DNA of 44,793 nucleotides from a phage. Under the pieces are notes generated by a model. That model made no database searches. It was not told the DNA's origin and saw nothing but the letters and a program-made list of their open reading frames with translations. A program made the position numbers and the translations under genes. Location: the sequence record PZ445535.1; one strand, given 5' to 3'. Shown here one piece after another: positions 4,456 to 44,793 of this stretch (positions are counted from its first letter, which is position 1; the number at the start of each line of letters is the position of its first letter).

Positions 4456-5217
4456 TTAGCGCGGAATACCGCAAATCTCGTTTAGTGTTTTCACGTCAAG
4501 CGCTACTGCCGTTGACTTTTTCTCTTCCTGCGGGATGAACTGTTTAACTTCGGGCCATGCCTTAATAAGTTTGGTGTCTGTGGTGTATTTATTCAATGTT
4601 CCCATAACCGACAATTTAAACTCATCATATTTTGCACGTAAAGCCCGGCGTGCTTTGTCGTTCTTATCCAGACGTTTGCAAAACTCATGATCTGCCGGGT
4701 AATCTGCACGACCCCGCGGCATGTAGATCGGCACTTGCTCGCCTTCCTCGTTGAGTTCCACCAGCGCCGCAAGTAGCGCCGTCGCAAACCCCGGTACGAT
4801 TTCGCCAATATCAGGGGCCATCATGTTATTGAATTTATCCTCCCAGTACCCGCGATGGCAACGCCAGCTATAGTTATCGCCACTCAATGACAGTGTGCGA
4901 ATATTCCCGCCCATGTTGACTTCGAACGTTGCGTCATATACAGACCCGATGCCGTGGGGCATGTCTTTGTTATGGCTGAAGGTAGCGCGGCTGGCGTACA
5001 CGCTTATGCTAAACATATTGTTGTATGCGTCTTGAAAGCTGCGCATCATTTTCTGCAAACCGACGAAATTGGTAACACCTTCCGGCATCTGATCCATGGT
5101 GATAGCCATAGCAAGGTCGCGCGATTCGGCCATTATCTTTTTGGCCTGCTTCGTGATTTCGTGGTCGGCCAGGATGTTAGCCAGAATCTGCTTTTTAATG
5201 TCTTTGGTCAGTCTCAT
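4456..5217 (-). CDS. hypothetical protein (reverse-oriented moron in head module)
   Basis: 253 aa (MRLTKD...); RBS GAGGAA 6 nt upstream of ATG at 5217; own sigma70-like promoter; convergent terminator shared with Rz1; no motif recognised. Confidence 0.6.
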   Translation of the reverse strand: MRLTKDIKKQILANILADHEITKQAKKIMAESRDLAMAITMDQMPEGVTNFVGLQKMMRSFQDAYNNMFSISVYASRATFSHNKDMPHGIGSVYDATFEVNMGGNIRTLSLSGDNYSWRCHRGYWEDKFNNMMAPDIGEIVPGFATALLAALVELNEEGEQVPIYMPRGRADYPADHEFCKRLDKNDKARRALRAKYDEFKLSVMGTLNKYTTDTKLIKAWPEVKQFIPQEEKKSTAVALDVKTLNEICGIPR

Positions 5218-5247
5218 CGTCATTTCCTCATTGGTTGGTGTGCAACC

Positions 5248-5276
5248 AATATATTGCAACCAACCCCCGTATGCAA
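5248..5276 (-). promoter_or_regulatory. sigma70-like promoter for moron gene (TTGCAT-N17-TATATT)
   Basis: Minus strand reads TTGCAT acgggggttggttgcaa TATATT ggttgcacacc...GAGGAA; contains ATTGGTTGCA motif. Confidence 0.45.
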
Positions 5277-5283
5277 GCAAATT

Positions 5284-5311
5284 TTGCGATTATTTTTATC
5301 ACTGATAATAT
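5284..5311 (+). promoter_or_regulatory. sigma70-like promoter for scaffold/capsid operon (TTGCGA-N16-TAATAT)
   Basis: TTGCGA at 5284-5289, TAATAT at 5306-5311, about 55 nt upstream of scaffold ATG. Confidence 0.4.
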
Positions 5312-5366
5312 TAGGGGCGTGAAGTCGAGCGGGTGGCCCGTTCTGCCACAATCCCTGGGGGATGTT

Positions 5367-6071
5367 ATGAAACTGACTAAAGCAGAATATGACGCGTTGC
5401 CAGAAGGCATGAAGGCTTTATTTGTTGCCGACGGTGACGGGTACAAGGCGACTTTTATGACCGCCGAAGAAGTACAGGCCGAGATCAAAGGTCTGAAGGA
5501 TAACAATGCAAAGCTGGTAGGTGAGAAGAAGGCAGAAGCCGAACGCCGTGCCGAAGCGGAGCGCATCGCTAAAGAGAAAGAGGAAGCCGCCGCGCGCAAA
5601 AATGGCGACCTCGAAGCGATCGACAAGTCATGGAAGGACAAATTCGCTAAATACGATGCGGATACGCAGGGCAAAATCGAAGCCTACCGTAAACAGATTC
5701 ACGATCTTACCATCGGCAGCGCAGCTAAAGACCTGGCATCAAAGCTGTTCGGTAAGAATGCTGGCATTATGCAACGCCACGTTATGGACCGCCTTGCATT
5801 GGAAGACGGCGAAGACGGCAGCCTGAAGGTGCGCGTATTGAAGGACGGCAAACCGTCCGCACTGACTATGGAAGAACTAGAAAAAGAGTTCCGTAGTAAC
5901 GAAGATTTCGCATCCGTCCTGGCTGGTACTCCTGCCGGTGGTGCGCCGAGTAAGCCGACCCACGTCATCGACGATCCGAAATCTAAGATCCAGATGGGCC
6001 ATAGCTTCGGCATTACTGACCTTACCAAACAGGCCAGCGATATTATCGCCAAACTGGGCGACGACGAGTAA
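5367..6071 (+). CDS. scaffolding protein (putative)
   Basis: 235 aa; highly charged with AEAERRAEAERIAKEKEEAAARK coiled-coil segment; immediately upstream of major capsid gene. Confidence 0.5.
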   Translation: MKLTKAEYDALPEGMKALFVADGDGYKATFMTAEEVQAEIKGLKDNNAKLVGEKKAEAERRAEAERIAKEKEEAAARKNGDLEAIDKSWKDKFAKYDADTQGKIEAYRKQIHDLTIGSAAKDLASKLFGKNAGIMQRHVMDRLALEDGEDGSLKVRVLKDGKPSALTMEELEKEFRSNEDFASVLAGTPAGGAPSKPTHVIDDPKSKIQMGHSFGITDLTKQASDIIAKLGDDE

Positions 6072-10534: not shown

Positions 10535-10848
10535 TTGCGGCGGCGCGACGATTTTATGGTCCGCCGCCACCGTCCGAAGACCTTGCCGCTAGTTTATGGG
10601 GTGCGGCCCCCGAAGATATTTGCCCGCCAGTTGCATTATGGCCTGATAACGTCCAGGTCGTTGCCGTTTTCACGGACTGCTCGACGCAGTGGCGCACCGG
10701 TTTTAATGGTGCATACGGCATCGACTATGGCGTACTGGAATGGTTGTTTAAAATGCACGGCATCGAAAACGAGAAGCGCGCTTTTAAAGATATTAAGCTA
10801 ATGGAGCGTATCGCACTCGACGAAATCGCAGCACAACAGGCCGGGTAA
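10172..10848 (+). CDS. tail assembly chaperone frameshift fusion (GT-like), programmed -1 frameshift at 10525-10531
   Basis: A_AAA_AAC heptamer in zero frame 5 codons before the stop; -1 frame stays open to TAA at 10846-10848 and encodes ...KKLIAAARRFYGPPPPSEDLAASLWGAAPEDICPPVALWPDNVQVVAVF...; intrinsic terminator follows. Confidence 0.7.
10525..10531 (+). other. -1 programmed ribosomal frameshift slippery heptamer A_AAA_AAC
   Basis: Heptamer in zero frame of chaperone gene; -1 frame open for 105 further codons. Confidence 0.7.
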
Positions 10849-10862
10849 TTCCGGCCTTTTTC
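10839..10862 (+). terminator. intrinsic terminator after chaperone frameshift ORF
   Basis: GGCCGG-GTAATT-CCGGCC hairpin followed by TTTTT; overlaps stop codon of -1 frame product. Confidence 0.6.
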
Positions 10863-11190
10863 GTATCGGGACAAGCGGGACGTCCCGTTTTTGTCCCACC
10901 CATCCCGCCACACCGAAAACTGCATACCTATTCAGAAATACTGCATAAAACCAAAACGGGACAAAAACGGGACAAGCGGGACGTCCCGCCTCAAAAGTGC
11001 ATACCTATGCAATTTTCGTGCATAAAACAAACGGGACAAAAACGGGACAGATTCCGCGCGGGACAAAGCGGGACGTCCCGCCGTCCCAGTCAGTGCTGCC
11101 GCGGGTTTCAGCCGTTCGGGACAAGCGGGACAAAGCCCAGTCTTTCAGACTAGACGGGGGTCAATGGCCCCCCTCGTCTGAGACTGAATA
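10863..11190. repeat. iteron-rich element A (about 11 CGGGACA heptamers, three GGGACGTCCC palindromes, two ~78-bp tandem units, terminal G/C-rich inverted repeat)
   Basis: Non-coding 400-bp gap inside tail operon; heptamer CGGGACA at 10867, 10957, 10968, 11032, 11043, 11059, 11117, 11126 etc.; inverted repeat CAGTCTTTCAGACTAGACGGGGG...CCCCCCTCGTCTGAGACTG at 11138-11186. Confidence 0.8.
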
Positions 11191-11256
11191 AGGTTGGTTG
11201 CAAAATGACTGATACAATACAAACGGCAACTTGCATAAAAAGGGGGGGACTGCATA

Positions 11257-13899
11257 ATGGCAGATCAAGCCGCAGGCATTACGCTAAAGGCGGACGTGTC
11301 GCAAATTAAATCGGCGAACAATGCGCTAGACCAAATGGCGCAAAAATCCGATAACACCGAAAAGAAAGTTAAGAAGCTAAACGACACCCTCGGCAACAAT
11401 AAGAAGGAGTCGTCCGGCGCTGCGGATGGAATGGGTAAGTTTGCACAGCAGACTGAACGAGCCGCAGATGGCATGACCAAACAGGAACGTTTGGCAAACC
11501 GGTTAGGCATGTCAACCAAAAACCTCGGCTTCGCATCACGCAACGCTGCATTCCAGCTTCAGGACATTGCCGTAACGCTTGAGATGGGTATGCCAGTGCA
11601 CCGTGTCATGCTTCAGCAGTTACCGCAGCTTACCGGTGCGTTTGGCGGTATGGCTAACACCTTGCGTTATGTTGCAGGCGTACTCGGTCCAGTAGGGATC
11701 GGCCTCGCGGCATTAACGGCAACGCTTGGCGTAGGTGTGGCTATGACCACGCGTGCCGATAACCAGGTTGCGGCGCTAAACAAGACGCTCACTCTTTCAG
11801 GTAACATTTCCGGCCTGACAGCTAACCGTATCCTGGAGCTTGCCGAGAACGCCGAGCGCATGGGAGGGACGTTCCGCAAGACTAAGGACACCATTCAGGC
11901 GCTGGCAGCGGCGGGTGTGCGCGCAGGGTCTGACTTCGGCGCACTTGCTAAGGTCGTTAATGATTTCGCCAGTGTATCAAGCGAGCCAATCGAAGACGTC
12001 GTTTCGGCGGTAGCCAAACTGTCAACGGACCCTGTAGGCGGCTTGCGCGCATTGGCGGACCAGTACCATGTCGTTACGGAAGCGCAGATCCAGCAGGTGC
12101 AATCGCTCATGGACGCGGGTAAAGAGACTGAAGCAGTTGCGGCGGCTAACAAGATCGCAACCGCATCATTCTCGGATATGACCACCGAGCTTAAAGCGAA
12201 CATGGGTACGCTTGAGCGCTCAATGAAAACGGTCACATCAGCAGCGAAGTCTATGTGGGATGCTATTCTGGATATTGGTCGGGCACAGTCGTCTAACGAA
12301 GCTGAGATGGAAGCCCGCGAGAAATTGCAGCGACTGACCACCGCCTACTACGTTGAGCAGAAAGCGGTTGCTGAGGCTGGCGGCAAGATGACCGAGGCAC
12401 AGAAGGCCCGGATCGATATGCTGTATAGCGAGATGGTAGCCCAGGAGAAGGTAGTTGCCTCCGCCACGCTGGCTAACCGCCAGAAGCGCGAAGAAGCACA
12501 GACCGCCGAGCAATCGGCTAAAGCACGGCAGCAGGAAAACCAGGCGGCCCGTGAACTGGCGGAGCTTGATGCTAAATACGCCACCAACGCCGAGAAGCGT
12601 GCGAAAGAACTGGCGAAGGTAGACCGCTTGCTGAAGTCCGGCACGATTTCGCAGGAGCGCCACGCCGAGCTTGTCGAGCAGATTAACAAGATGTACAAAG
12701 ACCCGGCACCGAAGAAGGCCGCTGCCGTTCGGGTAGACTCCGGCCTGAAAATGCTTGAGATCGCAAAGAGCGAACTGGCGCAACTTCGCGAGGCTGGAAA
12801 GTTAATCACCGCCAATGCTTCAAACCAGACACGCACACAGCGCGCACAAGCGGCCCTGAGCAAGCTAATTGCCGATAATGAGCAGTTAGTCGCTGCGAGC
12901 AAGTCCAGAGCGCTGACGGCAGCGGAGAAGCAGCAATTAGCCGAGTTTGAGAACGTACGCGCGGTGCGAGAGCAAATCGTCGCGGAAGCGAAGCGCCAGG
13001 ATGAGGTCGAGAAGTCCGTAAAAGCGCACGCGCAGATCGACGCCTACCTGAAGAATCAGGACGCCGAACTGAAAGCCATTACGGCAGGCTACGCCTTATC
13101 GACCCGCGAAGCGTCTAACCTGCGGGAAGAGATGCAGCTAATTGACAGACTGAAGCGCGTCGGTGCTTCCGACACAGATATTGACCGTGCTGTTTCAAAG
13201 CTGCGCGAAGTGCAGGAGGCGCAAACCGGCGCTAACGCGTCGTTGTGGGATGGCTTCAGCCGCGGCCTGAAAGATAGCGTGGATGACCTGGGTAACGGAT
13301 ATACGCAGATGGTATCCGCGACAAAATTCACGTTCGGCGCTATGATGGATACGATGAACGAGTTTTTCGAGACTGGTAAATTCAACGCGAGGGATATGAT
13401 TAAATCCATCCTGAGCGAATTTATCAAGCTGGCTACCTCGCAAGCGTTTAAGTCCGTTGTTACCGCGTTCGGCGGTGGTGGAAAAGACGGACTGTTTGGG
13501 GCGATCTTCTCCGGCCTCACTAAGAACGCCGACGGCGGAGCGTACTCCGGCGGCAACCTTTCCGCGTATTCCGGGCAAGTGGTGAGCCAGCCTACCTTTT
13601 TCAATTACGGCGTTAAGGCGTTCGCTAAGGGCGCAGGATTGATGGGCGAGGCCGGGCCAGAGGCCATCATGCCACTGAAGCGCGGGCCGGACGGTAAGCT
13701 GGGCGTTGCCGCAAGTGGCGCGGGCGGAGGCGGCATCGTTGTGACCACTAACGTCAACATGGGTACGGGGCAGGCCGACACCAGCGTTAAAGGTACCGAC
13801 CCACGAATGGGCCAGGTATTTGGCAAGCAGATCACGGAAGCGGTTAAAGCCGAAATCGTGAAAGCAACTAAACCAGGTGGTGTACTTTATAAACGATGA
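11257..13899 (+). CDS. tape measure protein
   Basis: 880 aa; long alpha-helical Ala/Gln/Lys-rich sequence; Gly-rich C-terminal region; RBS AGGGGGGG; followed by M/L/K/I/J-like genes. Confidence 0.9.
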   Translation: MADQAAGITLKADVSQIKSANNALDQMAQKSDNTEKKVKKLNDTLGNNKKESSGAADGMGKFAQQTERAADGMTKQERLANRLGMSTKNLGFASRNAAFQLQDIAVTLEMGMPVHRVMLQQLPQLTGAFGGMANTLRYVAGVLGPVGIGLAALTATLGVGVAMTTRADNQVAALNKTLTLSGNISGLTANRILELAENAERMGGTFRKTKDTIQALAAAGVRAGSDFGALAKVVNDFASVSSEPIEDVVSAVAKLSTDPVGGLRALADQYHVVTEAQIQQVQSLMDAGKETEAVAAANKIATASFSDMTTELKANMGTLERSMKTVTSAAKSMWDAILDIGRAQSSNEAEMEAREKLQRLTTAYYVEQKAVAEAGGKMTEAQKARIDMLYSEMVAQEKVVASATLANRQKREEAQTAEQSAKARQQENQAARELAELDAKYATNAEKRAKELAKVDRLLKSGTISQERHAELVEQINKMYKDPAPKKAAAVRVDSGLKMLEIAKSELAQLREAGKLITANASNQTRTQRAQAALSKLIADNEQLVAASKSRALTAAEKQQLAEFENVRAVREQIVAEAKRQDEVEKSVKAHAQIDAYLKNQDAELKAITAGYALSTREASNLREEMQLIDRLKRVGASDTDIDRAVSKLREVQEAQTGANASLWDGFSRGLKDSVDDLGNGYTQMVSATKFTFGAMMDTMNEFFETGKFNARDMIKSILSEFIKLATSQAFKSVVTAFGGGGKDGLFGAIFSGLTKNADGGAYSGGNLSAYSGQVVSQPTFFNYGVKAFAKGAGLMGEAGPEAIMPLKRGPDGKLGVAASGAGGGGIVVTTNVNMGTGQADTSVKGTDPRMGQVFGKQITEAVKAEIVKATKPGGVLYKR

Positions 13900-16671: not shown

Positions 16672-19600
16672 CTATCGTCTACTCCGTAACGGGCCATAAG
16701 GGTGGAGGCGGGAAACAGCACACCCCGCAGGAGACGCCTGATAGCCTGCACTCGCTGGCTAAAATCCGCATTCTGCTCGCACTGGGTGAAGGGGAATTTG
16801 AAGGCATCCCTTCGACAGCCGAGCTACGCAAGCGCGTCTACCTGGACGGCACGCCGATCATGAACGAGGATAACTCGGAAAACTTCCCTGGCGCACGCGT
16901 TGAATTTCGCCCCGGAACACAGCACCAGGATGTGATTCACGGATTTTCAGCCGTGGAAAGCGAGTCATCCGTAAACGTCAAACTGGAACAGGGGACGCCG
17001 TGGGTCCGTCAAATCACCGACACCAGTCTTGACGCGGTGCGCATTCGCATCGGTATTCCTGCGTTGTACACCAACGAGGAAAACGGCGATCTGGTGGGTG
17101 GGCGCATCGACTATAAAATCGTGGTGTACACCGACAACGCTGATCCGCGGGAGTTTAACTTCGCTGCCGTTGGTAAAACAATGTCGCTGTATGAGCGCGA
17201 CCACCGCATTGAATTACCGCCGAACGTTAACACTAGCTGGCGCGTCGAAGTGCACCGCATTACGCCCGACTCCACCTCGGCGAAAGTGGTAAACGATATT
17301 CGCGTGCAGTCAATCACTGAGATTGTCGACGCCCGTTTGCGCTACCCGCTAACTGCGTTGCTATTCGTCGAGTTCGACGCGAAGGCTTTCCAGAATATCC
17401 CGCGCGTGTCTATCAAGTGCAAAGGCCGCAAAGTGCTGGTCCCTAACAACTACGACCCGATCGCGCATACCTATAGCGGCGACTGGGATGGTACCTTCAA
17501 GCGTGCATGGACGGATAACCCGGCGTGGCACTGGTACGATATTTGTATTACGGAACGTTTCGGACTCGGTCGTCGCATCAAGCCGCAAATGCTAAACCGC
17601 TATGCGCTTTACCAGATCGCCCAGCGCTGCGATCAGAAGGTTAGCGACGGCAACGGCGGACAGGAAATCCGGTTTAAGAACGACATGTACATCCAGTCGC
17701 AGACCGACGCATGGACCGTACTGAAAGACTTAGCCGCCATCTTCGCCGGTATGACCTGGTGGGGCAACCAAATGCTGAATATTGTCAGTGACCAGCCGGT
17801 CGCTGCGGTTTCGCACACCATTACTAATGCCTCCGTTATAGATGGGCGATTCGATTATGCGTCTGGCAGCCAGAAGACCCGCTATTCAACCTTTGCGGTG
17901 GCATACGGCAATCCGGCTAACCATTACGACGACGCAATCGCTACGGGCCAGCGTGTGGAACTGGTGCGCCGCCACAAGATTAACCGCCTTGATATTACGG
18001 CGATCGGCTGTACGCGTGAATCAGAAGCGCAACGCCGCGGGCACTGGGCGCTCATCTCAAACCAGCTTGATCAGCAGGTGAGCTTCAAAGTCGGCATGGA
18101 AGGTCTGTTCTTCATCCCCGGAAGCGTGGTAGCTATCGCAGACACCAATATTTCTGGCGGTTTCGAAATCCGCGGCGGGCGCTTACTGGAAGACCCCGGA
18201 ACGCGCACGGTGCTTAACACCGACGAGGAAATTACATTCCGACCAGGTGATAAATTCCTGGTACGCACTGCGAACGGTAGTGTCGAGACTCGCACAATCT
18301 CAAGCGTAAACGGCAACAAGGTTACGCTATCAAGCGCACTTGACGCGGACCCGATCCCGTTCCAGCCGTTTTGCGTTGACGGTGATGATATTCAGGTGCA
18401 GAAGTTCCGCATCACCGATCTGGAGTATGACGACGCGACCAGCACCTTCTCGGTGCGCGGGATTGAGTACAACGACAGCAAGTATGATGCCGTTGATAAT
18501 GGCGCTCGTCTTGACCCGGGCATCTTTACGCAAATGCCGGACGGCGTGCTGAAGGGGCCGGAATCCGTGACCATTACCCCGTCGCAGATTTCAAGCCAGG
18601 GCCAGTTAATCACCAACGTGGATATTGTTTTCCCGCCGGTGAAAGATGCCGTTGTCTATGAAATCCAGTGGCGAAGGACCAGCCTTCAGAATATGGCGGT
18701 GCAGTGGGGTAACGACTGGGTAAACCTGCCTCGCACGCCGTCAAACGGTGCGCACATCCCTAACGTGTTTTCCGGTAACTACCAGGCGCGCGTCCGGGCA
18801 ATCGGTATGGGTGAAATCTCATCCCCGTGGGTGGAATCTGTCATCACGCCGATTGAAGGTCGTCTCGGCGGTCTGAATGCGCCAATCATTACGGCAGCAG
18901 TGTCCGGTCTGCATCAGATCTTGTGGAAGTGGAATCACAACAACGCCGCTACGGATATTTCATACACGGAATTGCAGGTACGCAAGCCGGGTACTGAAGA
19001 ATGGCACTTCCTCACCAACGTGCCGTATCCGGGCGCGGACTATGCGCAGACGTCGCTTGAGTTCGGGGTCTATCAGCAGTTGCGCGCACGCGTGTCTGAT
19101 AAAATCGGCAACCTGTCAGACTGGTCAGCGCCGTTTGAAGGCCAGGTGAGCGATAAAGTCGACGACTACATGAAGGGACTCGACGACGAGTTTTTGACTT
19201 CGGAAGACGGTAAGCACTTCCAGGAGCAGATCGACACGTTCCCGCAAGGCATCTATGAGTCAATGCTCACTGACGCGCAGCAGTTGTTTAACGCCCGCGC
19301 CGAGTACAAAGGGATTTACGCCGAGATCAAGGTGGCTTATAACGTCGCTGCCGACGCACACCAGGCCGTCGCGCAACTGGAAACACTGGTAGGCACTCGT
19401 ATTGACGACGCGGAAGCGGCGATCCACACGCTACAGACTGCACAGAGCACGCACGAACAGGCGTTTGCCCAGTACCAGCAAACTGTGTCAGCGAAGTTTG
19501 GCGAGCAGGAATCGGCGATTCAGCAGGTTCAGACGGCAACGAGTGACGTAGCCAGCGCACTGGCGACCTATAAAACACAGGTAGCCGCGCAGTTCGGGCA

Positions 19601-23974: not shown

Positions 23975-24508
23975 TTATTTAAGTGCGTTAGTCACCAGTG
24001 TTTTTTCCATCTTGCGGAAGTCGTCCAGGGTCATCCGGATTTTAGACCCATCTTCGCCGTGCAACGTAACCAGTGGTTTAGTTTTCACTAAAACACCCTC
24101 CGGCAGCTTCCACGCTTCGACAGTTTTCTTCACTGCATCCTGGAAAGCGGTTGCAGCGATCTTGCCATCCAGCTTAACCGCTACGCCCTTCAGGCTGTCA
24201 AACTGTGCTGCCGTTGTGTCGATCTGGACCTCGTCGTGCACGGTGGCGTATGACTCACCCAGTAGAGCGGCATACGCTACCAGGTCGACGATGTTGTCTT
24301 CCCGGTGCTTGCGGTGCTGGCGTACCAGCTTCAGGCAAATCAAGAAGGTCCAGGCTTCTTGCTCGGTAAGGTCGCGACCGGTAAGCGCGTTAAACACGGC
24401 GGCAATTTGTTTAGCGATGCGTTCTTCTTTCGCGTTGCCATAGCCGTTTTCTTTTCCGCGCTGTTCCATAGTGGTGGCGGCGTTTTTGCAGTATTCGAAT
24501 GCTTTCAT
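23975..24508 (-). CDS. hypothetical protein
   Basis: 177 aa from ATG 24508 (MKAFEYC...); RBS AGGAG 7 nt upstream; sigma70-like promoter and 5' stem-loop upstream. Confidence 0.5.
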   Translation of the reverse strand: MKAFEYCKNAATTMEQRGKENGYGNAKEERIAKQIAAVFNALTGRDLTEQEAWTFLICLKLVRQHRKHREDNIVDLVAYAALLGESYATVHDEVQIDTTAAQFDSLKGVAVKLDGKIAATAFQDAVKKTVEAWKLPEGVLVKTKPLVTLHGEDGSKIRMTLDDFRKMEKTLVTNALK

Positions 24509-24554
24509 GGTTTGTCTCCTTTGACGGGAGGCGGTATTGCCTCCCGATGTGGTT

Positions 24555-24583
24555 AATATAATTGGTTGCATTATTGGTTGCAA
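24555..24583 (-). promoter_or_regulatory. sigma70-like promoter (TTGCAA-N17-TATATT) with 5' stem-loop
   Basis: Minus strand: cacTTGCAAccaataatgcaaccaatTATATT; GC stem-loop CGGGAGG...CCTCCCG at 24525-24546 at predicted 5' end. Confidence 0.45.
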
Positions 24584-25041
24584 GTGAATTTTGCAAGATT
24601 CACTGAATAAATGTGCGGGACCAGTTCTTCGCACGCCCGTTTGATGGCGGCTATGTTCTTCGCGCAGTCGTCAATGATGACCAGTTCGTTAACTTCTGCG
24701 TAGCACACCAGGCCAAATACGGAACGAGCTTTATATTCCGGCGGCGGGGTGTCATCCAGCATGTGGCGCAAGAACAGACGGCCTTTCGGGAATCGGTCTA
24801 ATTGCTCTTTCGTTGTCTCCCAGCATTCAGACTGGCGGTTTGACAGGTACGCGATGTCGAAGCCCTGTTTAGCGTACATGCGCAATAACGGCAGCATGTC
24901 ATAATTAATGTCTTCGCGGACGTGGGCCTTATGCCACTTCGCCCAAAACGTTGATTTAGTCTTGATCCCCGGAACTAGGTCGTCGCGCACACTGCTTGAC
25001 CCGTTGATAACGCCATCTAAATCGCAAATCAGTAGTTTCAT
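24571..25041 (-). CDS. HAD-superfamily phosphatase-like protein
   Basis: 156 aa; HAD motif I DLDGV at residues 7-11, then YLSNR and K...IIDD motifs. Confidence 0.55.
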   Translation of the reverse strand: MKLLICDLDGVINGSSSVRDDLVPGIKTKSTFWAKWHKAHVREDINYDMLPLLRMYAKQGFDIAYLSNRQSECWETTKEQLDRFPKGRLFLRHMLDDTPPPEYKARSVFGLVCYAEVNELVIIDDCAKNIAAIKRACEELVPHIYSVNLAKFTCNQ

Positions 25042-26418: not shown

Positions 26419-26435
26419 CGTCAAATCCTCATATT

Positions 26436-26462
26436 AAAAAGGGCGTTCCCTTCGGAACACCC
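26436..26462 (-). terminator. intrinsic terminator overlapping transcription start of next promoter
   Basis: On minus strand GGGTGTTCC-GAAG-GGAACGCCC hairpin followed by TTTTT; lies between promoter -10 (26465-26470) and RBS of gene at 26418. Confidence 0.4.
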
Positions 26463-26464
26463 TC

Positions 26465-26493
26465 AATATAATGCAACCAATCTCGCAATGCAA
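26465..26493 (-). promoter_or_regulatory. sigma70-like promoter (TTGCAT-N17-TATATT)
   Basis: Minus strand: attggTTGCATtgcgagattggttgcatTATATT; tandem motif copies. Confidence 0.45.
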
Positions 26494-33257: not shown

Positions 33258-33286
33258 AATTTACTTGGTTGCGTTTCCGCGGTCAA
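33258..33286 (-). promoter_or_regulatory. candidate promoter for SSB-like gene (TTGACC-N17-TAAATT)
   Basis: Minus strand: TTGACCgcggaaacgcaaccaagTAAATT; motif copies CGCAACCAAG / AGCAACCAAG. Confidence 0.35.
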
Positions 33287-36107: not shown

Positions 36108-36137
36108 ATAATAGATTGGTTGCAGTATGGGTGTCAA
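36108..36137 (-). promoter_or_regulatory. sigma70-like early promoter for minus-strand operon (TTGACA-N18-TATTAT)
   Basis: Minus strand: TTGACAcccatactgcaaccaatcTATTAT; about 40 nt upstream of acidic-protein RBS. Confidence 0.5.
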
Positions 36138-36313: not shown

Positions 36314-36643
36314 ATGAATATCAACGAAGCAATTGAAGTGTTATCTAATGCAATCCGCGGCGAGTCTGGTAAATCCTGGTATTACACAAATGCGGTGGAT
36401 ACTCTGTTATTTGAAGTGTCCAGATTATCGCGTGCCGAGAAAGAGCTTACCGCCAAACTTGAATTGCTGAACGGTACGGCAGCGAGCAAGCTGCAAAAGC
36501 ATAACGAAGAAATGGAAGAATACAAAAAGCAGGTTATCAGACTGCGCGAAGAGGGTAAGTCCTGGGCGATGATTGCCGAGTTAACAGGCATTAACCAGAG
36601 CACGGTGCGATCCTGGGTACGCAATACTAAAACCGCTAAGTAA
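36314..36643 (+). CDS. helix-turn-helix DNA-binding protein (putative regulator)
   Basis: 109 aa; C-terminal HTH-like SWAMIAELTGINQSTVRSWV; RBS AGGAGG; first gene of divergent plus-strand operon. Confidence 0.55.
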   Translation: MNINEAIEVLSNAIRGESGKSWYYTNAVDTLLFEVSRLSRAEKELTAKLELLNGTAASKLQKHNEEMEEYKKQVIRLREEGKSWAMIAELTGINQSTVRSWVRNTKTAK

Positions 36644-36652
36644 GGGATTGAG

Positions 36653-38920
36653 ATGATGAGAAATATAGAATTTGCGATCACACCTCCCGCAAAGAAAGGT
36701 GAATCAGCGGTAGCCCATAACCAATCCATGACTACCGCCGAGTTTTTCGAGTTTATGCTGGATGCGCCGGTGGTGTCGTCAGTTTGCATTAACGGCACTG
36801 AAGATAAGAAAGAATACGCCCGTCGTAAGCGTAAAGGCGACGGTATTGTGGCGACCACCGCCGACGGTACGCGTAAGAAGACCGGCGTTGTTGACCGTTC
36901 GATCCTGTTCTTTGACCTGGACCGCGCCGACAACCGCACACTTACCCGCTGCCGTAGGGCTTTTCGCAAGTCCGGGCTGGAGTATGTCTATCACACCACC
37001 ACCGGCGACCGCCACCCGTTGAAAGACGGCAAACGTTGCGCCCGTTTCCTTGTGCTGACAAACAAACCAGTTCCGGCTGAAGACCTGGGCCGCGCGCAGG
37101 CTGCACTGCTCGAACAACTGGGCCTTACAGACGCGGGCTTTGATGACTGTTCGAAAGACACAAACCGTCTTATGTACTTGCCACACCAGCAGGCTAAGGT
37201 CGAATGCCATGAAGGTAAACGCGCTAACGTGCGTCGTCTGCTTCGCCGGGCTGACCGGATGGGTATTGAGCAGGAGACGTTTCGCCGTGAACTGGCGCAG
37301 GGCGACGACGAGCAGATGAACGGAATCCTCGACTGGTGTTTCCAGGCTGGCTTTGAGCCGTTGCCATCCGGGCGCGGTTATGAAGTGCCGTGCCCGAACG
37401 AACATCTGCACTCTGGCGAAGGGTCAACCGCTATCATGCTTAAGGATGGCGAGATCCGTTTCAAATGTATGCACACCGGCAACGGTTGCTGTTCGGAACT
37501 GAACAAACACCAGCACCTGGCGCTACGCATGATTGGCATCCCGGATATTTATAACGTGGAACCGCACAACATGTCACGCAAACAGATCTCGGCTATCCTG
37601 CCAGGTCTGGACGATGAAGAAGTGGACGCGCAGTATGAGCACATGGTCGATCTGGTAGGTGAGGGTGAGGATTATGCTTCCTGTACCGACGCAGACCTGG
37701 AAGACGAACCGACGGCGCTGTTCTCTAAGCACGACCCGATCATCGAAGGTCTGATTAACTTCAAATCGACCTGGTACGCAGCGGGCGAGTCGAACATTGG
37801 TAAGTCCTTCTTTGTCCTGGGTCAGATGGCTGCCGTTGCCGCTGGCATTCCGTTCGGCGGCGCGAAGGTCGTCCAGTCACATTGCTTCTATTTCGATGCG
37901 GAAGGTGGCGAGGCGTCACACCAGCGTAAAGAGGCACTGCAGATTAAATATGAGCACGACCTGGATAAGCTGCACATTATCGACCTTCAGGCCCGCGGCT
38001 GGGATATTACGAGCAAATCCGGCCTGCGTGAAGTCATCAGCTTTATCAACCGCACCGCGGATGGTGAACCGGTCGGCCTGGTGGCATTCGACTCCCTTAA
38101 CCAGACAGTGGCCCTGCGATCTGCTGACGCCAAACCGTTCGATGAGAACAACGCAAGCGATATGGGTGAGATTGTCAAAGCGCTGAAGGCCATTGCGGAA
38201 AACACAGGCGGCAGTGCGGGCGTCATCCACCACCCGGCTAAGGGTGCAAACGGCAGCAGATCCCCGCGGGGGTCCGGTGCGCTACATGGCGCGGTGGATT
38301 CTGCATTCTTCCTGGAACAGCCAGACGAGAATCAGCCGGGCCAGCTAAACCTGTACCACGAAAAAGCACGTAACGGCGTCAAACAGGGTCCGCGCGGCTT
38401 CGTGCTACTGAAGTGCAAAGTATCCATTAACGAGCGCAAGTCTGACTCGTTCGAAGCGCACCAGTCCACTAACCCCGGACCGGACTTCGGCGATGTAGTT
38501 GCCGGATGGGACGTCAAGCCAATCCAGGCCACGCCGCGCGACGAGACTCTGTACCTCGTACCGGTAGCGCTGACCCCGTTCGCTATTGAACAGGCTAAGG
38601 CGGCAGGCAAGCAGGCTGTTAAGGATGAGAACACCGCAGGCCCGCGCAATGAAAAAGAGAAAGTGCTGTACGCAGCGCTCGAAGCGTTGATGGAAGAGAA
38701 TCCGGGCCACCACGGCTTCAGCAAATCGGCAATCGTCCGCAAAGCTGGGCTGGCGAAAGGCGGCACTTCGACGAAGCCAATCGACGATATGCGCGAGCGC
38801 GGAATCATCGGCTTTTACAAAGACCCGGACACCGGGGCCATTTACGGGTCGTCGAATCTGGTTATCAATTCACAAATATCTATGCAATTGACGGCGACGG
38901 ACGACGACCTTAAAGATTAA
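36653..38920 (+). CDS. DNA primase-helicase (AEP-like N-terminal domain, zinc motif, RecA-fold ATPase)
   Basis: 755 aa; N-terminal FFDLDRAD / HTTTGDRHPL acidic motifs; Cys/His cluster CPNEHLH...CMHTGNGCC; Walker A AGESNIGKS and Walker B LVAFDSL. Confidence 0.65.
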   Translation: MMRNIEFAITPPAKKGESAVAHNQSMTTAEFFEFMLDAPVVSSVCINGTEDKKEYARRKRKGDGIVATTADGTRKKTGVVDRSILFFDLDRADNRTLTRCRRAFRKSGLEYVYHTTTGDRHPLKDGKRCARFLVLTNKPVPAEDLGRAQAALLEQLGLTDAGFDDCSKDTNRLMYLPHQQAKVECHEGKRANVRRLLRRADRMGIEQETFRRELAQGDDEQMNGILDWCFQAGFEPLPSGRGYEVPCPNEHLHSGEGSTAIMLKDGEIRFKCMHTGNGCCSELNKHQHLALRMIGIPDIYNVEPHNMSRKQISAILPGLDDEEVDAQYEHMVDLVGEGEDYASCTDADLEDEPTALFSKHDPIIEGLINFKSTWYAAGESNIGKSFFVLGQMAAVAAGIPFGGAKVVQSHCFYFDAEGGEASHQRKEALQIKYEHDLDKLHIIDLQARGWDITSKSGLREVISFINRTADGEPVGLVAFDSLNQTVALRSADAKPFDENNASDMGEIVKALKAIAENTGGSAGVIHHPAKGANGSRSPRGSGALHGAVDSAFFLEQPDENQPGQLNLYHEKARNGVKQGPRGFVLLKCKVSINERKSDSFEAHQSTNPGPDFGDVVAGWDVKPIQATPRDETLYLVPVALTPFAIEQAKAAGKQAVKDENTAGPRNEKEKVLYAALEALMEENPGHHGFSKSAIVRKAGLAKGGTSTKPIDDMRERGIIGFYKDPDTGAIYGSSNLVINSQISMQLTATDDDLKD

Positions 38921-39030
38921 AATTTGCGCGCATTGGTTGCCGATATGGGAATTCCCATATCGCTAAAAGATTAAATTCTGCGCGCATTGGTTGCCAGATT
39001 GAGCATTAAATCTATATCGCATTGGTTGCC
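38912..39030. repeat. three direct repeats containing GCGCATTGGTTGCC plus perfect 22-bp palindrome
   Basis: 30-bp repeats at 38912-38941 and 38966-38995 (54-bp period), partial third at 39018-39030; palindrome CGATATGGGAATTCCCATATCG at 38941-38962. Confidence 0.75.
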
Positions 39031-39068
39031 GTGTAGTGCTAAATAAGTGAATAGTTATGCAAAATAAG

Positions 39069-39240
39069 TGCATAAAACAAACGGGACAAAAACGGGACAA
39101 ACTACAAGCGGGACAAAACGGGACGTCCCGCCGTCCCCGTCAGGCGTGGTGCGGATTTGAGGCGAACGGGACAAGCGGGACAGACCACAGTCTTTCAGAC
39201 TAGACGGGGGGTATTGTCCCCCCTCCGTCTGAGACTGCAT
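39069..39240. repeat. iteron-rich element B (second copy of element A core)
   Basis: 32-mer GTGCATAAAACAAACGGGACAAAAACGGGACA identical to 11018-11049; GGGACGTCCCGCCGTCCC; CGGGACAAGCGGGACA; G6/C6 inverted repeat at 39188-39237. Confidence 0.8.
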
Positions 39241-39396
39241 AAAATCTCTGGTTGCATAATCAACGGCAGCATAGTGAAAATTGCGGCGGGGGTAGATCTC
39301 GGCAACCAATGCATGTTGGATAATGGAGAGTGAAAAATGCAGTTTGCAATTGCAACTCATAGCGATCAGCATTTCCATGCGCGTGATTGATATTGG

Positions 39397-39425
39397 TTGC
39401 ATTCAGCCTGGCACCTTGCTATATT
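39397..39425 (+). promoter_or_regulatory. sigma70-like promoter (TTGCAT-N17-TATATT) for early genes at 39454+
   Basis: attggTTGCATtcagcctggcaccttgcTATATTggttgcacaccaac; shares a 20-nt block with the promoter at 5248-5276. Confidence 0.5.
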
Positions 39426-39453
39426 GGTTGCACACCAACATGAGGACTGAACG

Positions 39454-39759
39454 ATGAGAGCATTAATCTGGAGTTACACATCAGCGGTCGCAGCGCTCTA
39501 TGAAGCGAAGCACACAAACGGCAACGCCGACCACGCACGCCAGGCTGTCATGTTCGCGCAGCAGGCAATCTTTGCAGCGTTCGACAACATGGACGCCAGC
39601 CTGGATGAACTGGAACCATTGCGTGTGGCAATCTGCGAGTATGCGATGAAATTCGCCCGTGAGCGTCTTGCTTACCGGTTTGGCATCGGCGAAACGGCGA
39701 CGGCTAACATCGCCCGCATTCAGGCCCAGCGTGAGCTACACGCCTTACTTGCGAAATAA
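39454..39759 (+). CDS. hypothetical early protein
   Basis: 101 aa; RBS GAGGA; first gene after promoter TTGCAT-N17-TATATT. Confidence 0.5.
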   Translation: MRALIWSYTSAVAALYEAKHTNGNADHARQAVMFAQQAIFAAFDNMDASLDELEPLRVAICEYAMKFARERLAYRFGIGETATANIARIQAQRELHALLAK

Positions 39760-40169: not shown

Positions 40170-40723
40170 AATTACTATTCCGCCGTAAGCATGACGGTCG
40201 CATCTTGAAGCTGATCCAGACCCTGGATTCCTACGTCCACTTGCGCCACGCGGCAAGCGATAGAGTATTCCGCGCGCAGAAGACCACGTTGCCGCAGTTC
40301 TTCGAAGTCCTCTCTCATGATATTGAGCGCGGCGATGTGCTGCGGGATATTCGCGATGGGCAATTGTGGGTCGTGGAGTGTGCGGGATTTAATAACCTTC
40401 GTATACAGACACGCATGGGTGGCGTATCGGGCAACATGATTAGGGGAATGACGTACTTCGGGCTAATCCACTACGAGCGCGTGGGGCGTAACTATAAACT
40501 TAAGCGCCCTGGTGTAGTGGCGAAAGAGATCACCCGTACGGAACACCCATATACCAAATACGACGAGCGCAAGGTGCGCGAGCATATCGACAACGCCAGA
40601 GCACAGGCTGCCGCTATGATTCGGGCTGGCAACGATGCCAAACGATTTGGGATTGGTGTTCTTCTGGTCTACCCCGACGGCAGCATGAAGTCTACCGATC
40701 CGCGCGGGGTCATTCTGAAATGA
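40166..40723 (+). CDS. hypothetical early protein
   Basis: 185 aa; RBS GAGGAG 8 nt upstream. Confidence 0.5.
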   Translation: MKLLFRRKHDGRILKLIQTLDSYVHLRHAASDRVFRAQKTTLPQFFEVLSHDIERGDVLRDIRDGQLWVVECAGFNNLRIQTRMGGVSGNMIRGMTYFGLIHYERVGRNYKLKRPGVVAKEITRTEHPYTKYDERKVREHIDNARAQAAAMIRAGNDAKRFGIGVLLVYPDGSMKSTDPRGVILK

Positions 40724-44242: not shown

Positions 44243-44793
44243 ATGGCAGAAATCAAAGTAAAAGGCCGTCGTGCGAAGTTAGACGGGCGAGTCGCAGTCA
44301 CTCCACGCCGCAAACCGGGCGAGCAAACCGAACATACCAATCTCGGACCTGAAATCGAATACGGCAAGCGCCGGAAAGGGGGCAAGTGTGGTCGTCCTAC
44401 TGATTATCGGTCTGTTTATTGTCGCCAGTTGCGAGATTATTTCGCTTCAGCCGACGCATGGCAAGTCAACTACTCGGACAAGGGCGCGGCGCAAGTCATC
44501 CCACGTAACAAGATGCCAACATTTGGGCGCTTTGCGGCGGAAATCGGGGTCGGCGTAGCATGTCTGTATCGCTGGGCGCGTAAGCATGAAGAATTCGCCG
44601 AGGCGATGGCTGACGCTATGGAACTGCAAAAGACCTTCCTCATGGAAGCTGGCGGCGTGACTATCGCAGCAGGCTTCGCTGCATTCCTGCTTAAAGCAAA
44701 CCACGGCGTCCGCGACGATGCACCGCTGGAAGATGACGACGATGATAACGGCGACGTAACCGTTGAGCCGGTCGGTAAAGGGCAGGGCGAGTG
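44243..44793 (+). CDS. terS: terminase small subunit-like protein (3'-partial in window; stop overlaps position 1 if circular)
   Basis: Open frame from ATG 44243 (RBS AAAGGGG) to window end with no stop; HTH-like FGRFAAEIGVGVACLYRWARKHEEF; codon 184 would be T-G + A(1) = TGA overlapping terL ATG; strong extended -10 promoter upstream. Confidence 0.5.
   Translation, partial: MAEIKVKGRRAKLDGRVAVTPRRKPGEQTEHTNLGPEIEYGKRRKGGKCGRPTDYRSVYCRQLRDYFASADAWQVNYSDKGAAQVIPRNKMPTFGRFAAEIGVGVACLYRWARKHEEFAEAMADAMELQKTFLMEAGGVTIAAGFAAFLLKANHGVRDDAPLEDDDDDNGDVTVEPVGKGQGE

Follow-up and report, generated by a model that had tools for sequence, protein, structure and literature searches.

A repeat cluster behind the primase-helicase gene of a Dhillonvirus as candidate sites of a global early-gene regulator beside an origin-like module

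The phage DNA of sequence record PZ445535.1, 44,793 nucleotides long (the window, by which we mean this whole stretch), carries a repeat-rich segment, 38912-39030, at the end of its primase-helicase gene, and a set of iterons directly after it. An initial annotation regarded this region as a non-coding hub (38921-39453) and as the best candidate in the window for a replication origin and/or an operator cluster. The locus raises the question of which of these functions its repeats serve and which protein would read them. We favour, with a probability of roughly one half, the reading that the four repeats R1 to R4 are clustered non-promoter binding sites of a global regulator recognising the 8-bp motif TTGGTTGC, probably the helix-turn-helix (HTH) protein gp48, placed on either side of an origin-like module.

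Repeats R1 to R4 and the motif TTGGTTGC

The direct repeats noticed initially form a family, D1, of three 33-nt copies with spacings of 54 and 35 nt (R1 to R3, Table 1), the second copy being 91% and the third 70% identical. The family does not start right after the stop codon, as had been stated: R1 overlaps the last three codons of the primase gene together with its TAA (38918-38920). The 12-mer GCATTGGTTGCC is exact in R1, R2 and R3, and a fourth, inverted copy, overlooked in the initial annotation, constitutes R4 on the far side of the iterons. These four exact copies are the only ones in the 44.8-kb window and all lie in the hub, while our own arithmetic gives an expectation of about 0.005 for a given 12-mer. 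R3 and R4 together make a 13-nt perfect inverted repeat whose arms are 268 nt apart. A miniature inverted-repeat transposable element with R3 and R4 as 13-bp terminal inverted repeats was considered and rejected, as the second copy of the module found in this genome (10995-11210) stops short, at both ends, of the positions matching R3 and R4 and contains no GCATTGGTTGCC.

The core of the 12-mer, TTGGTTGC, is found 22 times in the window, 18 times in Shigella phage StarDew, 19 times in phage HK578 and 21 times in Sodalis phage SO-1, at syntenic positions and with about 1.3 copies expected in each. Most copies are paired, 12-31 nt apart, in intergenic DNA upstream of non-structural operons. Promoters were located by a position weight matrix (PWM) scan for sigma70-type sites on both strands of the window; it replaced a default consensus scan that rejects TTGCAT-type -35 hexamers and returned nothing in the hub. 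Sixteen of the 22 TTGGTTGC sites overlap 10 of the 25 best-scored sigma70-like promoters, against 0.61 for random positions. The likeness of the motif to a -35 hexamer does not explain this overlap because TTGCA pentamers taken together overlap top promoters at only 17%. The depositors of HK578 independently annotated a promoter over one of the sites. An over-represented motif at conserved positions, lying on core promoters, is what an operator regulon would display.

The placement of the motif on these promoters varies. In six of the ten it provides the -35 hexamer, TTGCAx, which stands 17 nt from a TATATT -10; elsewhere the motif occupies the spacer beside the -10 or covers the -10 and +1, and it may run with the promoter or against it (antiparallel or variable placement is seen for instance at 36108-36137, 33258-33286 and 24555-24583). 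Such variation in position and orientation would fit the behaviour of an operator and not that of a polymerase recognition element. The six promoters with a TTGCAx hexamer invite the alternative that TTGGTTGC is an extended -35-type element for the host RNA polymerase, possibly remodelled by the phage, and that R1 to R3 are weak promoters whose transcript activates the origin; TATAAT or TATAGT downstream of R3 in many relatives would agree with it. We consider this improbable in view of the copies that occupy spacers, cover the -10 and +1 or run antiparallel. Moreover, R1 to R4 have no acceptable -35/-10 pair, the best being TTGGTT-N15-TATAAT in some relatives with ATAAGT as its counterpart in the window, and none of the top 40 PWM matches falls on them. 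The non-promoter sites number six, four of which are R1 to R4. A leftward promoter-like match at 39061-39089 is not conserved in relatives.

Two further occurrences of the motif deserve mention. On the minus strand a terminator-like hairpin (gggtgttccgaagggaacgccc plus ttttt) comes immediately after a promoter of the form TTGCAT-N17-TATATT (~26430-26493) that bears two TTGGTTGC sites, in such a way that the predicted start site would lie within the terminator-like stem; an overlapping terminator/promoter arrangement is possible there. An R-like copy, TTGGTTGCC, at 17764-17771 (minus strand) within a minor-tail gene is the only intragenic copy retained in all four genomes (window, StarDew, HK578 and SO-1), which is probably just coding conservation.

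The CytR operator, GTTGCATT, was also considered and set aside. GTTGCA is common to it and to many promoter sites, but the part conserved here is TTGG plus TTGC, the R sites have GTTGCC instead, and CRP sites were not seen. A literature search with the motif string returned primer matches only, and no description of an origin or promoter motif was found in the literature on Dhillonvirus, HK578 and SO-1. Neither the motif shared across the genus nor its link to an invariant HTH protein appears to have been described before, though both are of a familiar kind.

Table 1. Position of the repeats, of the neighbouring module and of associated genes in the window
Feature	Position	Strand	Remarks
gp48-like protein gene	36314..36643	+	109 aa; long helix and C-terminal helix-turn-helix; directly upstream of primase gene
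Primase-helicase gene	36653..38920	+	755 aa; Pfam AAA_25; 3' end runs into R1
R1 (33 nt)	38909..38941	+	core TTGGTTGC 38933-38940; 12-mer GCATTGGTTGCC 38930-38941
Palindrome CGATATGGGAATTCCCATATCG	38941..38962	.	with R1, one optional 54-bp unit
R2	38963..38995	+	12-mer at 38984-38995
R3	38998..39030	+	12-mer at 39019-39030
A+T-rich boxes GAATAGTTATGCA, TGCATAAAAC	39047..39079	+	71% A+T; left edge of origin-like module
Iteron block	39080..39182	+	five direct CGGGACA and an inverted copy (palindrome CGGGACGTCCCG)
Long imperfect hairpin CAGTCTTTCAGACTAGACGGGGGG...CCCCCCTCCGTCTGAGACTG	39183..39240	.	76% of columns invariant; duplicated in second module
R4	39301..39312	-	inverted copy of GCATTGGTTGCC, far side of iteron module
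Promoter TTGCAT-N17-TATATT	39390..39432	+	for next gene (ATG 39454); two TTGGTTGC sites, 39393 and 39424
Second module, region A	10860..11210	+	expanded copy, between tail-chaperone and tape-measure genes

Conserved sites and an optional palindrome

The hub was aligned for the window and 16 Dhillonvirus genomes, 17 in total. R1 and the palindrome behave in this alignment as a single 54-bp unit, present in 8 genomes and absent in 9. HK578 and SO-1 are devoid of it, as is IMGVR_UViG_3300045988_003101, whose primase is 99% identical to that of the window. Another relative (L001) has an internal 22-bp deletion in the unit that removes half of the palindrome. The phage database holds 81 records with the unit and 159 with the hub. 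Loss of exactly 54 bp is the product expected from recombination between the repeats R1 and R2. The unit is dispensable, at least as judged from its distribution, because it is missing from nine of 17 genomes, one of them with the almost identical primase, and from about half of the 159 records.

The three other sites evolve differently. Across the 17 genomes 11 of 12 columns of R3 (92%) and all 12 of R4 (100%) are invariant; R2 has 9 invariant columns of 12 (75%), a mean major-allele frequency of 0.98 and a deletion in one genome only (L010). Only 18-27% of the columns are invariant in the spacers next to them. The spacer between R2 and R3, 27% invariant, exists as two diverged haplotypes and yet keeps its length. 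R2, R3 and R4 are thus conserved in a footprint-like manner. The conservation in relatives on which the initial proposal depended is found for R2 to R4, near-invariant in 17 genomes, and not for the palindrome and R1, missing in nine of them.

More divergent lineages, with primases 65-68% identical to that of the window, extend this picture. Three were recovered through their gp48 homologues, and all three carry a pair of TTGGTTGC sites right after the primase stop codon, as well as sites at promoters. The geometry of the pair differs among them: direct with 17 nt, direct with 47 nt, and inverted with 16 nt, the inverted pair being that of L037. The whole 38912-39030 segment is absent from three other genomes (L023, L025 and L027), which keep the iteron module. 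These distributions suggest that the R cluster is a genus-level addition beside an older origin-like architecture.

The same data bear on whether the cluster could have arisen neutrally, without a function of its own, as promoter fragments were duplicated in tandem and decayed. The 54-bp unit is indeed a presence/absence polymorphism, the repeats include a duplicated gene 3' end (AAAGATTAAA), and copy 1 carries TTGGTCGC in three relatives. Neutrality would nonetheless hardly account for R2, R3 and R4 being far better conserved than their flanks, with R4 invariant in 17 of 17 genomes, nor for the persistence of a site pair at the same place in the lineages with 65-68% primase identity, and we hold this explanation for a poor one.

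The palindrome itself was correctly described as perfect and 22 bp long. CGATATGGGAATTCCCATATCG is unique in the window even with 3 mismatches allowed, and the genome has nothing else resembling it. All other perfect palindromes of the window are shorter, and in 200 shuffles the longest averaged 15.5 nt with a maximum of 22 (p ~0.01). Where it is present in relatives its centre varies (GGGAATCCCC, GGGGATTCCC), and changes in the left arm occur without compensation in the right arm. It is the least important part of the finding.

Its RNA could form a 9-bp stem with a 4-nt loop (-13.9 kcal/mol, z = -3.2) starting 21 nt past the stop codon, and changes of the centre in relatives fall in the predicted loop. 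The palindrome and the self-complementary TGCGCGCA of R1 and R2, for which a longer composite R1-R2 stem is predicted, might in this way act as an RNA stem-loop that ends or stabilises the primase mRNA. Such a role is doubtful: no U-tract or T-run follows the palindrome on either strand, so that the stem of an intrinsic terminator is there and its U-tract is not, and the 131-nt region folds only marginally better than shuffles (z = -1.9 and -2.3). The outer-stem changes are uncompensated, about half of the genus is without the structure, and Rfam gave no match at E <= 1 in 38700-39600 on either strand. A terminator scan likewise revealed no plus-strand intrinsic terminator after the primase gene.

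Two side observations concern the palindrome. The EcoRI sequence GAATTC occurs only twice in 44.8 kb (38949-38954 and 44591-44596) against 12.4 +/- 3.6 expected; one of these sites is the centre of the palindrome, and it has often become GAATCC or GGATTC in relatives. The scarcity of the site and the mutated centre suggest restriction-site avoidance. The second observation is that 24 nt including the palindrome (window 38940-38963) are identical, 24 of 24, to coding sequence of a KilA-N-domain gene, where they encode the peptide DMGIPIS, in unrelated phages: E. coli phage 666R9, PPompW prophages and a Proteus phage (matches at L029 2501-2524, L030 2501-2523 and L031 2501-2523). Short-patch transfer or convergence may be responsible. 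A remnant of a KilA-N gene was rejected, since the likeness ends at the 24-nt palindrome.

The hub is non-coding, as initially annotated, and relatives differ in it by insertions or deletions of 54, 22, 16 and 1 nt. Public annotations nevertheless place conflicting open reading frames (ORFs) on its opposite strands: StarDew gp50 and gp51, HK578 gp47 and gp48, and Ioannina WFD55469.1 (window 39323-39457, 39055-39402). In the 44-aa ORF at 39323-39457, interrupted in several relatives, substitutions are spread evenly across codon positions (20/17/19). The annotated hub ORFs are probably spurious because they have no codon-position bias and because relatives show lost start codons, an in-frame stop and frameshifts.

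The origin-like module and gp48

Immediately beyond R3, the module at 39045-39262 has, from its layout, the makings of a better origin candidate than the R repeats, with A+T-rich boxes, iterons and a long imperfect hairpin in sequence. Exact matches to the left arm of this hairpin number 29 in 16 IMG/VR contigs, most genomes having two. In the window the second copy is in region A, which has 8 CGGGACA copies, two GCGGGACGTCCCGC palindromes and no R-type site, and is preceded by a terminator-like hairpin at ~10838-10862. The two module copies are 85-90% identical over ~215 nt, an estimate from pairwise alignment. Region A is possibly a second origin or a cis-acting replication region within the late operon.

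Relatives with primases only 38-45% identical show the same order: primase stop codon, GAATAGTTATGCA, iterons of their own (GGGATAA, TCCGACA or GGGGATRA) and a similar hairpin, with nothing corresponding to 38912-39030. The origin-like architecture that adjoins the repeats would thus be old and separate from them, because these distant relatives keep the module without that segment. Its iterons have changed even among the three lineages with 65-68% identical primases, CGGGACA being found in one and GGTGCCA in two. In the latter two (L035, 8570-8900; L039, 8590-8861) the scaffold, the hairpin and the TTGGTTGC sites are the same and GGTGCCA simply replaces CGGGACA, which looks like a clean specificity switch. 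No region of the primase and no protein in the 12-kb loci segregates with iteron type.

The R repeats themselves do not behave like iterons. Their spacing is irregular, 54 and 35 nt here and 17, 47 or 16 (inverted) nt in other lineages. They are not conserved with the module, R1 and the palindrome missing in nine of 17 genomes and three genomes keeping the module alone, and they do not co-vary with the iterons, TTGGTTGC remaining unchanged when CGGGACA becomes GGTGCCA. Of the two functions first proposed for 38912-39030, the operator cluster is upheld by TTGGTTGC on promoters and by the footprint-like R2 to R4; an origin within the segment itself finds no support, given the absence of R1 and the palindrome in about half of the genus and the distant relatives and region A, which have no R sites. 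It is plausible that R sites, flanking the module, have a role in origin control.

The most serious competing idea is that the R sites are part of the origin proper, boxes recognised by an initiator or loader which, like DnaA, has sites at promoters as well, and that they nucleate loading of the primase-helicase at the A+T boxes and iterons. Several facts fit it. The sites follow the primase-helicase gene directly and border on the 71% A+T boxes and the iterons, the near-invariant R2, R3 and R4 bracket the module, and a site pair is kept here in the lineages with 65-68% identical primases. gp48 and the primase-helicase are a conserved gene pair, and HK578 mutants escaping the OLD defence map to the gp48-primase operon, which their authors read as replication initiation. 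In one relative with a 43% identical primase (L026), eight copies of GTTGGTTGC at 5260-5560 are the only repeats downstream of the primase gene; they have the same core as the promoter and R motif of Dhillonviruses, and a gene for an XRE-type HTH protein lies upstream. No gp48 homologue exists, however, in the 8 kb of the L026 locus, and the motif there may be a coincidence. Region A and the more distant relatives have the module without R sites, R1 is optional, and the pair changes in spacing and orientation from one lineage to the next. On balance we regard the idea as unlikely, if the least so of the alternatives. Somewhat less likely again is a bolder version in which gp48 would be a dual-function, DnaA-like protein of a virulent siphophage. 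TTGGTTGC would then serve both as promoter operator and as origin box, accumulation of gp48 would shut early promoters and license primase-helicase loading, L026 would represent the ancestral state, and the R1-palindrome unit would tune the origin.

gp48, named after its StarDew counterpart, is the candidate binder of TTGGTTGC in the reading that we favour. It is hit by the Pfam profiles Sigma70_r4_2 and HTH_23 and is the sole protein with a Pfam-detectable HTH among 29 ORFs scanned, mostly early genes; the window has no XRE-type HTH, unlike the DNA upstream of the primase gene in distant relatives. In 19 homologues the C-terminal 60 aa, including the recognition helix STVRSWVRN, are near-invariant and the N-terminal 45 residues are hypervariable. 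The AlphaFold2 (AF2) model, with a predicted local distance difference test score (pLDDT) of 86.8, consists of one 58-residue helix followed by a compact HTH. Foldseek searches of this model against PDB gave only generic HTH matches (E > 0.7). The domain is a generic three-helix HTH, without AAA+ or DnaA domain IV. A C-terminus frozen to this degree would fit a protein constrained by some 20 dispersed sites. In the three divergent lineages (L035, L037 and L039) a TTGGTTGC copy stands just downstream of the promoter of the gp48-primase operon, where it would allow autoregulation. By inference gp48 is likely the binder.

According to the favoured reading, TTGGTTGC would act like a repressor operator on some ten early or middle sigma70-type promoters, at their -35, spacer, -10 or +1, and the same global regulator of early genes would control the surroundings of the origin. 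R1 to R3, between the end of the primase-helicase gene and the iterons, and R4 with the two operators of the next promoter on the opposite side, would bracket the module. Bound regulator could block or modulate read-through from the primase operon into the origin, a role proposed because no intrinsic terminator follows the primase gene; alternatively it could tie origin use to the early transcription programme. The regulator would most likely be gp48, encoded just upstream of the primase gene, and R1 with the palindrome would be a 54-bp accessory unit, gained or lost by R1-R2 recombination and not required. The observations are the statistics of the motif, its overlap with promoters, the way in which the sites are conserved, the polymorphic indels and the retention of the motif in spite of changed iterons; protein binding, the identity of gp48 as binder and the effect of binding at R sites are deduced from sequence.

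Some points weigh against this interpretation. Promoter sites mostly read wwATTGGTTGCA, but in the R sites the core is preceded by GCA and followed by C (TTGGTTGCC), and a different protein could recognise these as a class of their own. The gp48-primase operon of the window has, at its promoter, no more than a degenerate copy of the motif, and the link between gp48 and TTGGTTGC is correlative, both being conserved in every genome looked at. The iteron array of L026, with the same core, may point to an initiator-type role. The genus offers no precedent of a lysogenic repressor because the annotations of three related genomes (StarDew, HK578 and SO-1) list neither an integrase nor a CI-type repressor, and a repressor-like function is read from site position alone.

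Genome context and comparison with known systems

The 650 bases round the repeats match 159 phage records, nearly all from Escherichia or Shigella Dhillonvirus (HK578-like siphoviruses), the best being Ioannina and LM40P1 at ~91%. The window is a near-complete genome of a Dhillonvirus, a phage of E. coli, because it is collinear with StarDew all the way from the large to the small terminase gene. Phages of this genus, common on E. coli, are present in the BASEL collection and used in studies of defence systems. The product of 36653-38920 is annotated as helicase-primase in relatives. GC skew tracks gene orientation and transcription direction, with a minimum near 36 kb, and is uninformative on the hub. 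The hub has no match among PLSDB plasmids, and thus gives no evidence there of autonomous replicons carrying it.

A leftward gene set among the head genes encodes a protein with an Nmad5 (nucleotide-modification-associated) domain, and the promoter of its gene bears two TTGGTTGC sites. Another early ORF carries DUF6378, and Dam- and Dcm-like methyltransferases are annotated in relatives. Together these features (window 4459-5232 and 23978-24634, both on the minus strand) are hints of DNA modification functions.

An 8-bp motif on about ten early promoters and a cluster of its sites by a probable origin provide a testable map of the early transcription programme and of its link to replication. 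The analysis also corrects spurious ORF calls in many deposited genomes. For engineering, the 54-bp palindrome unit is removable, and R2 to R4 should probably be kept.

The nearest published counterpart is the record of Sodalis phage SO-1 (NC_013600.1), in which repeat region B (40178-40657) extends from the primase stop codon to the next gene and region A (11214-11597) precedes the tape-measure gene. These regions are at the same locus in a congeneric phage, and the record describes them as 'direct, inverted and palindromic repeat sequences' with mutual similarity. It does so in an annotation note only, without setting the R sites apart from the iterons and without a genome-wide motif or a function.

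Iteron origins beside an initiator gene are known in phage lambda (ori and the O protein) and in satellite phage P4 (ori and crr with the alpha primase-helicase). The neighbouring module, and not the R sites, seems to resemble them, with its direct and inverted iterons, an A+T stretch, its position beside the primase-helicase gene and its lineage-specific iterons. Region A, a second and distant iteron cluster, would recall P4 crr. Unlike lambda and P4 iterons, the R repeats are irregularly spaced, partly optional, unchanged when the iterons change and have a core common to promoter sites.

DnaA boxes are asymmetric 8-9-mers found in both orientations near origins and at promoters where DnaA acts as a transcription factor. 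The two orientations, the clusters near an origin and the promoter copies of TTGGTTGC are reminiscent of them. TTGGTTGC has, however, no sequence similarity to TTATCCACA, and gp48 does not have the AAA+ module or domain IV of DnaA.

From its sequence-level features the R cluster would belong with operator regulons, apart from temperate immunity, and not with iteron origins. In mycobacteriophage L5, operators and 'stoperators' of gp71 are reportedly tens of copies of a short asymmetric motif, and repressor bound at the non-promoter copies is said to block elongation. The many dispersed copies, some on promoters and others at non-promoter intergenic positions, suggest a parallel. L5 is temperate and its gp71 is the immunity repressor, whereas Dhillonviruses, going by three annotated genomes, have neither an integrase nor CI. 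A regulon of this type would, if it operates here, serve a lytic programme. L5 stoperators have a fixed orientation relative to transcription, while TTGGTTGC occurs in both (R1 to R3 along transcription, R4 and the L037 pair inverted), and the sites described here are putative binding sites. The C1 repressor of P1 has dispersed asymmetric 17-bp operators, and in RK2 the global operators of KorA and KorB exist alongside the iterons of oriV. The arrangement proposed here would be similar in having one regulator with many sites in several operons, replication included, and a separate iteron-binding initiator. It differs in motif, protein and lifestyle, and without sign of looping, spreading or partner proteins. 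By analogy, the closest functional counterparts of the R cluster would be these dispersed asymmetric operator systems, L5 gp71, P1 C1 and RK2 KorA/KorB.

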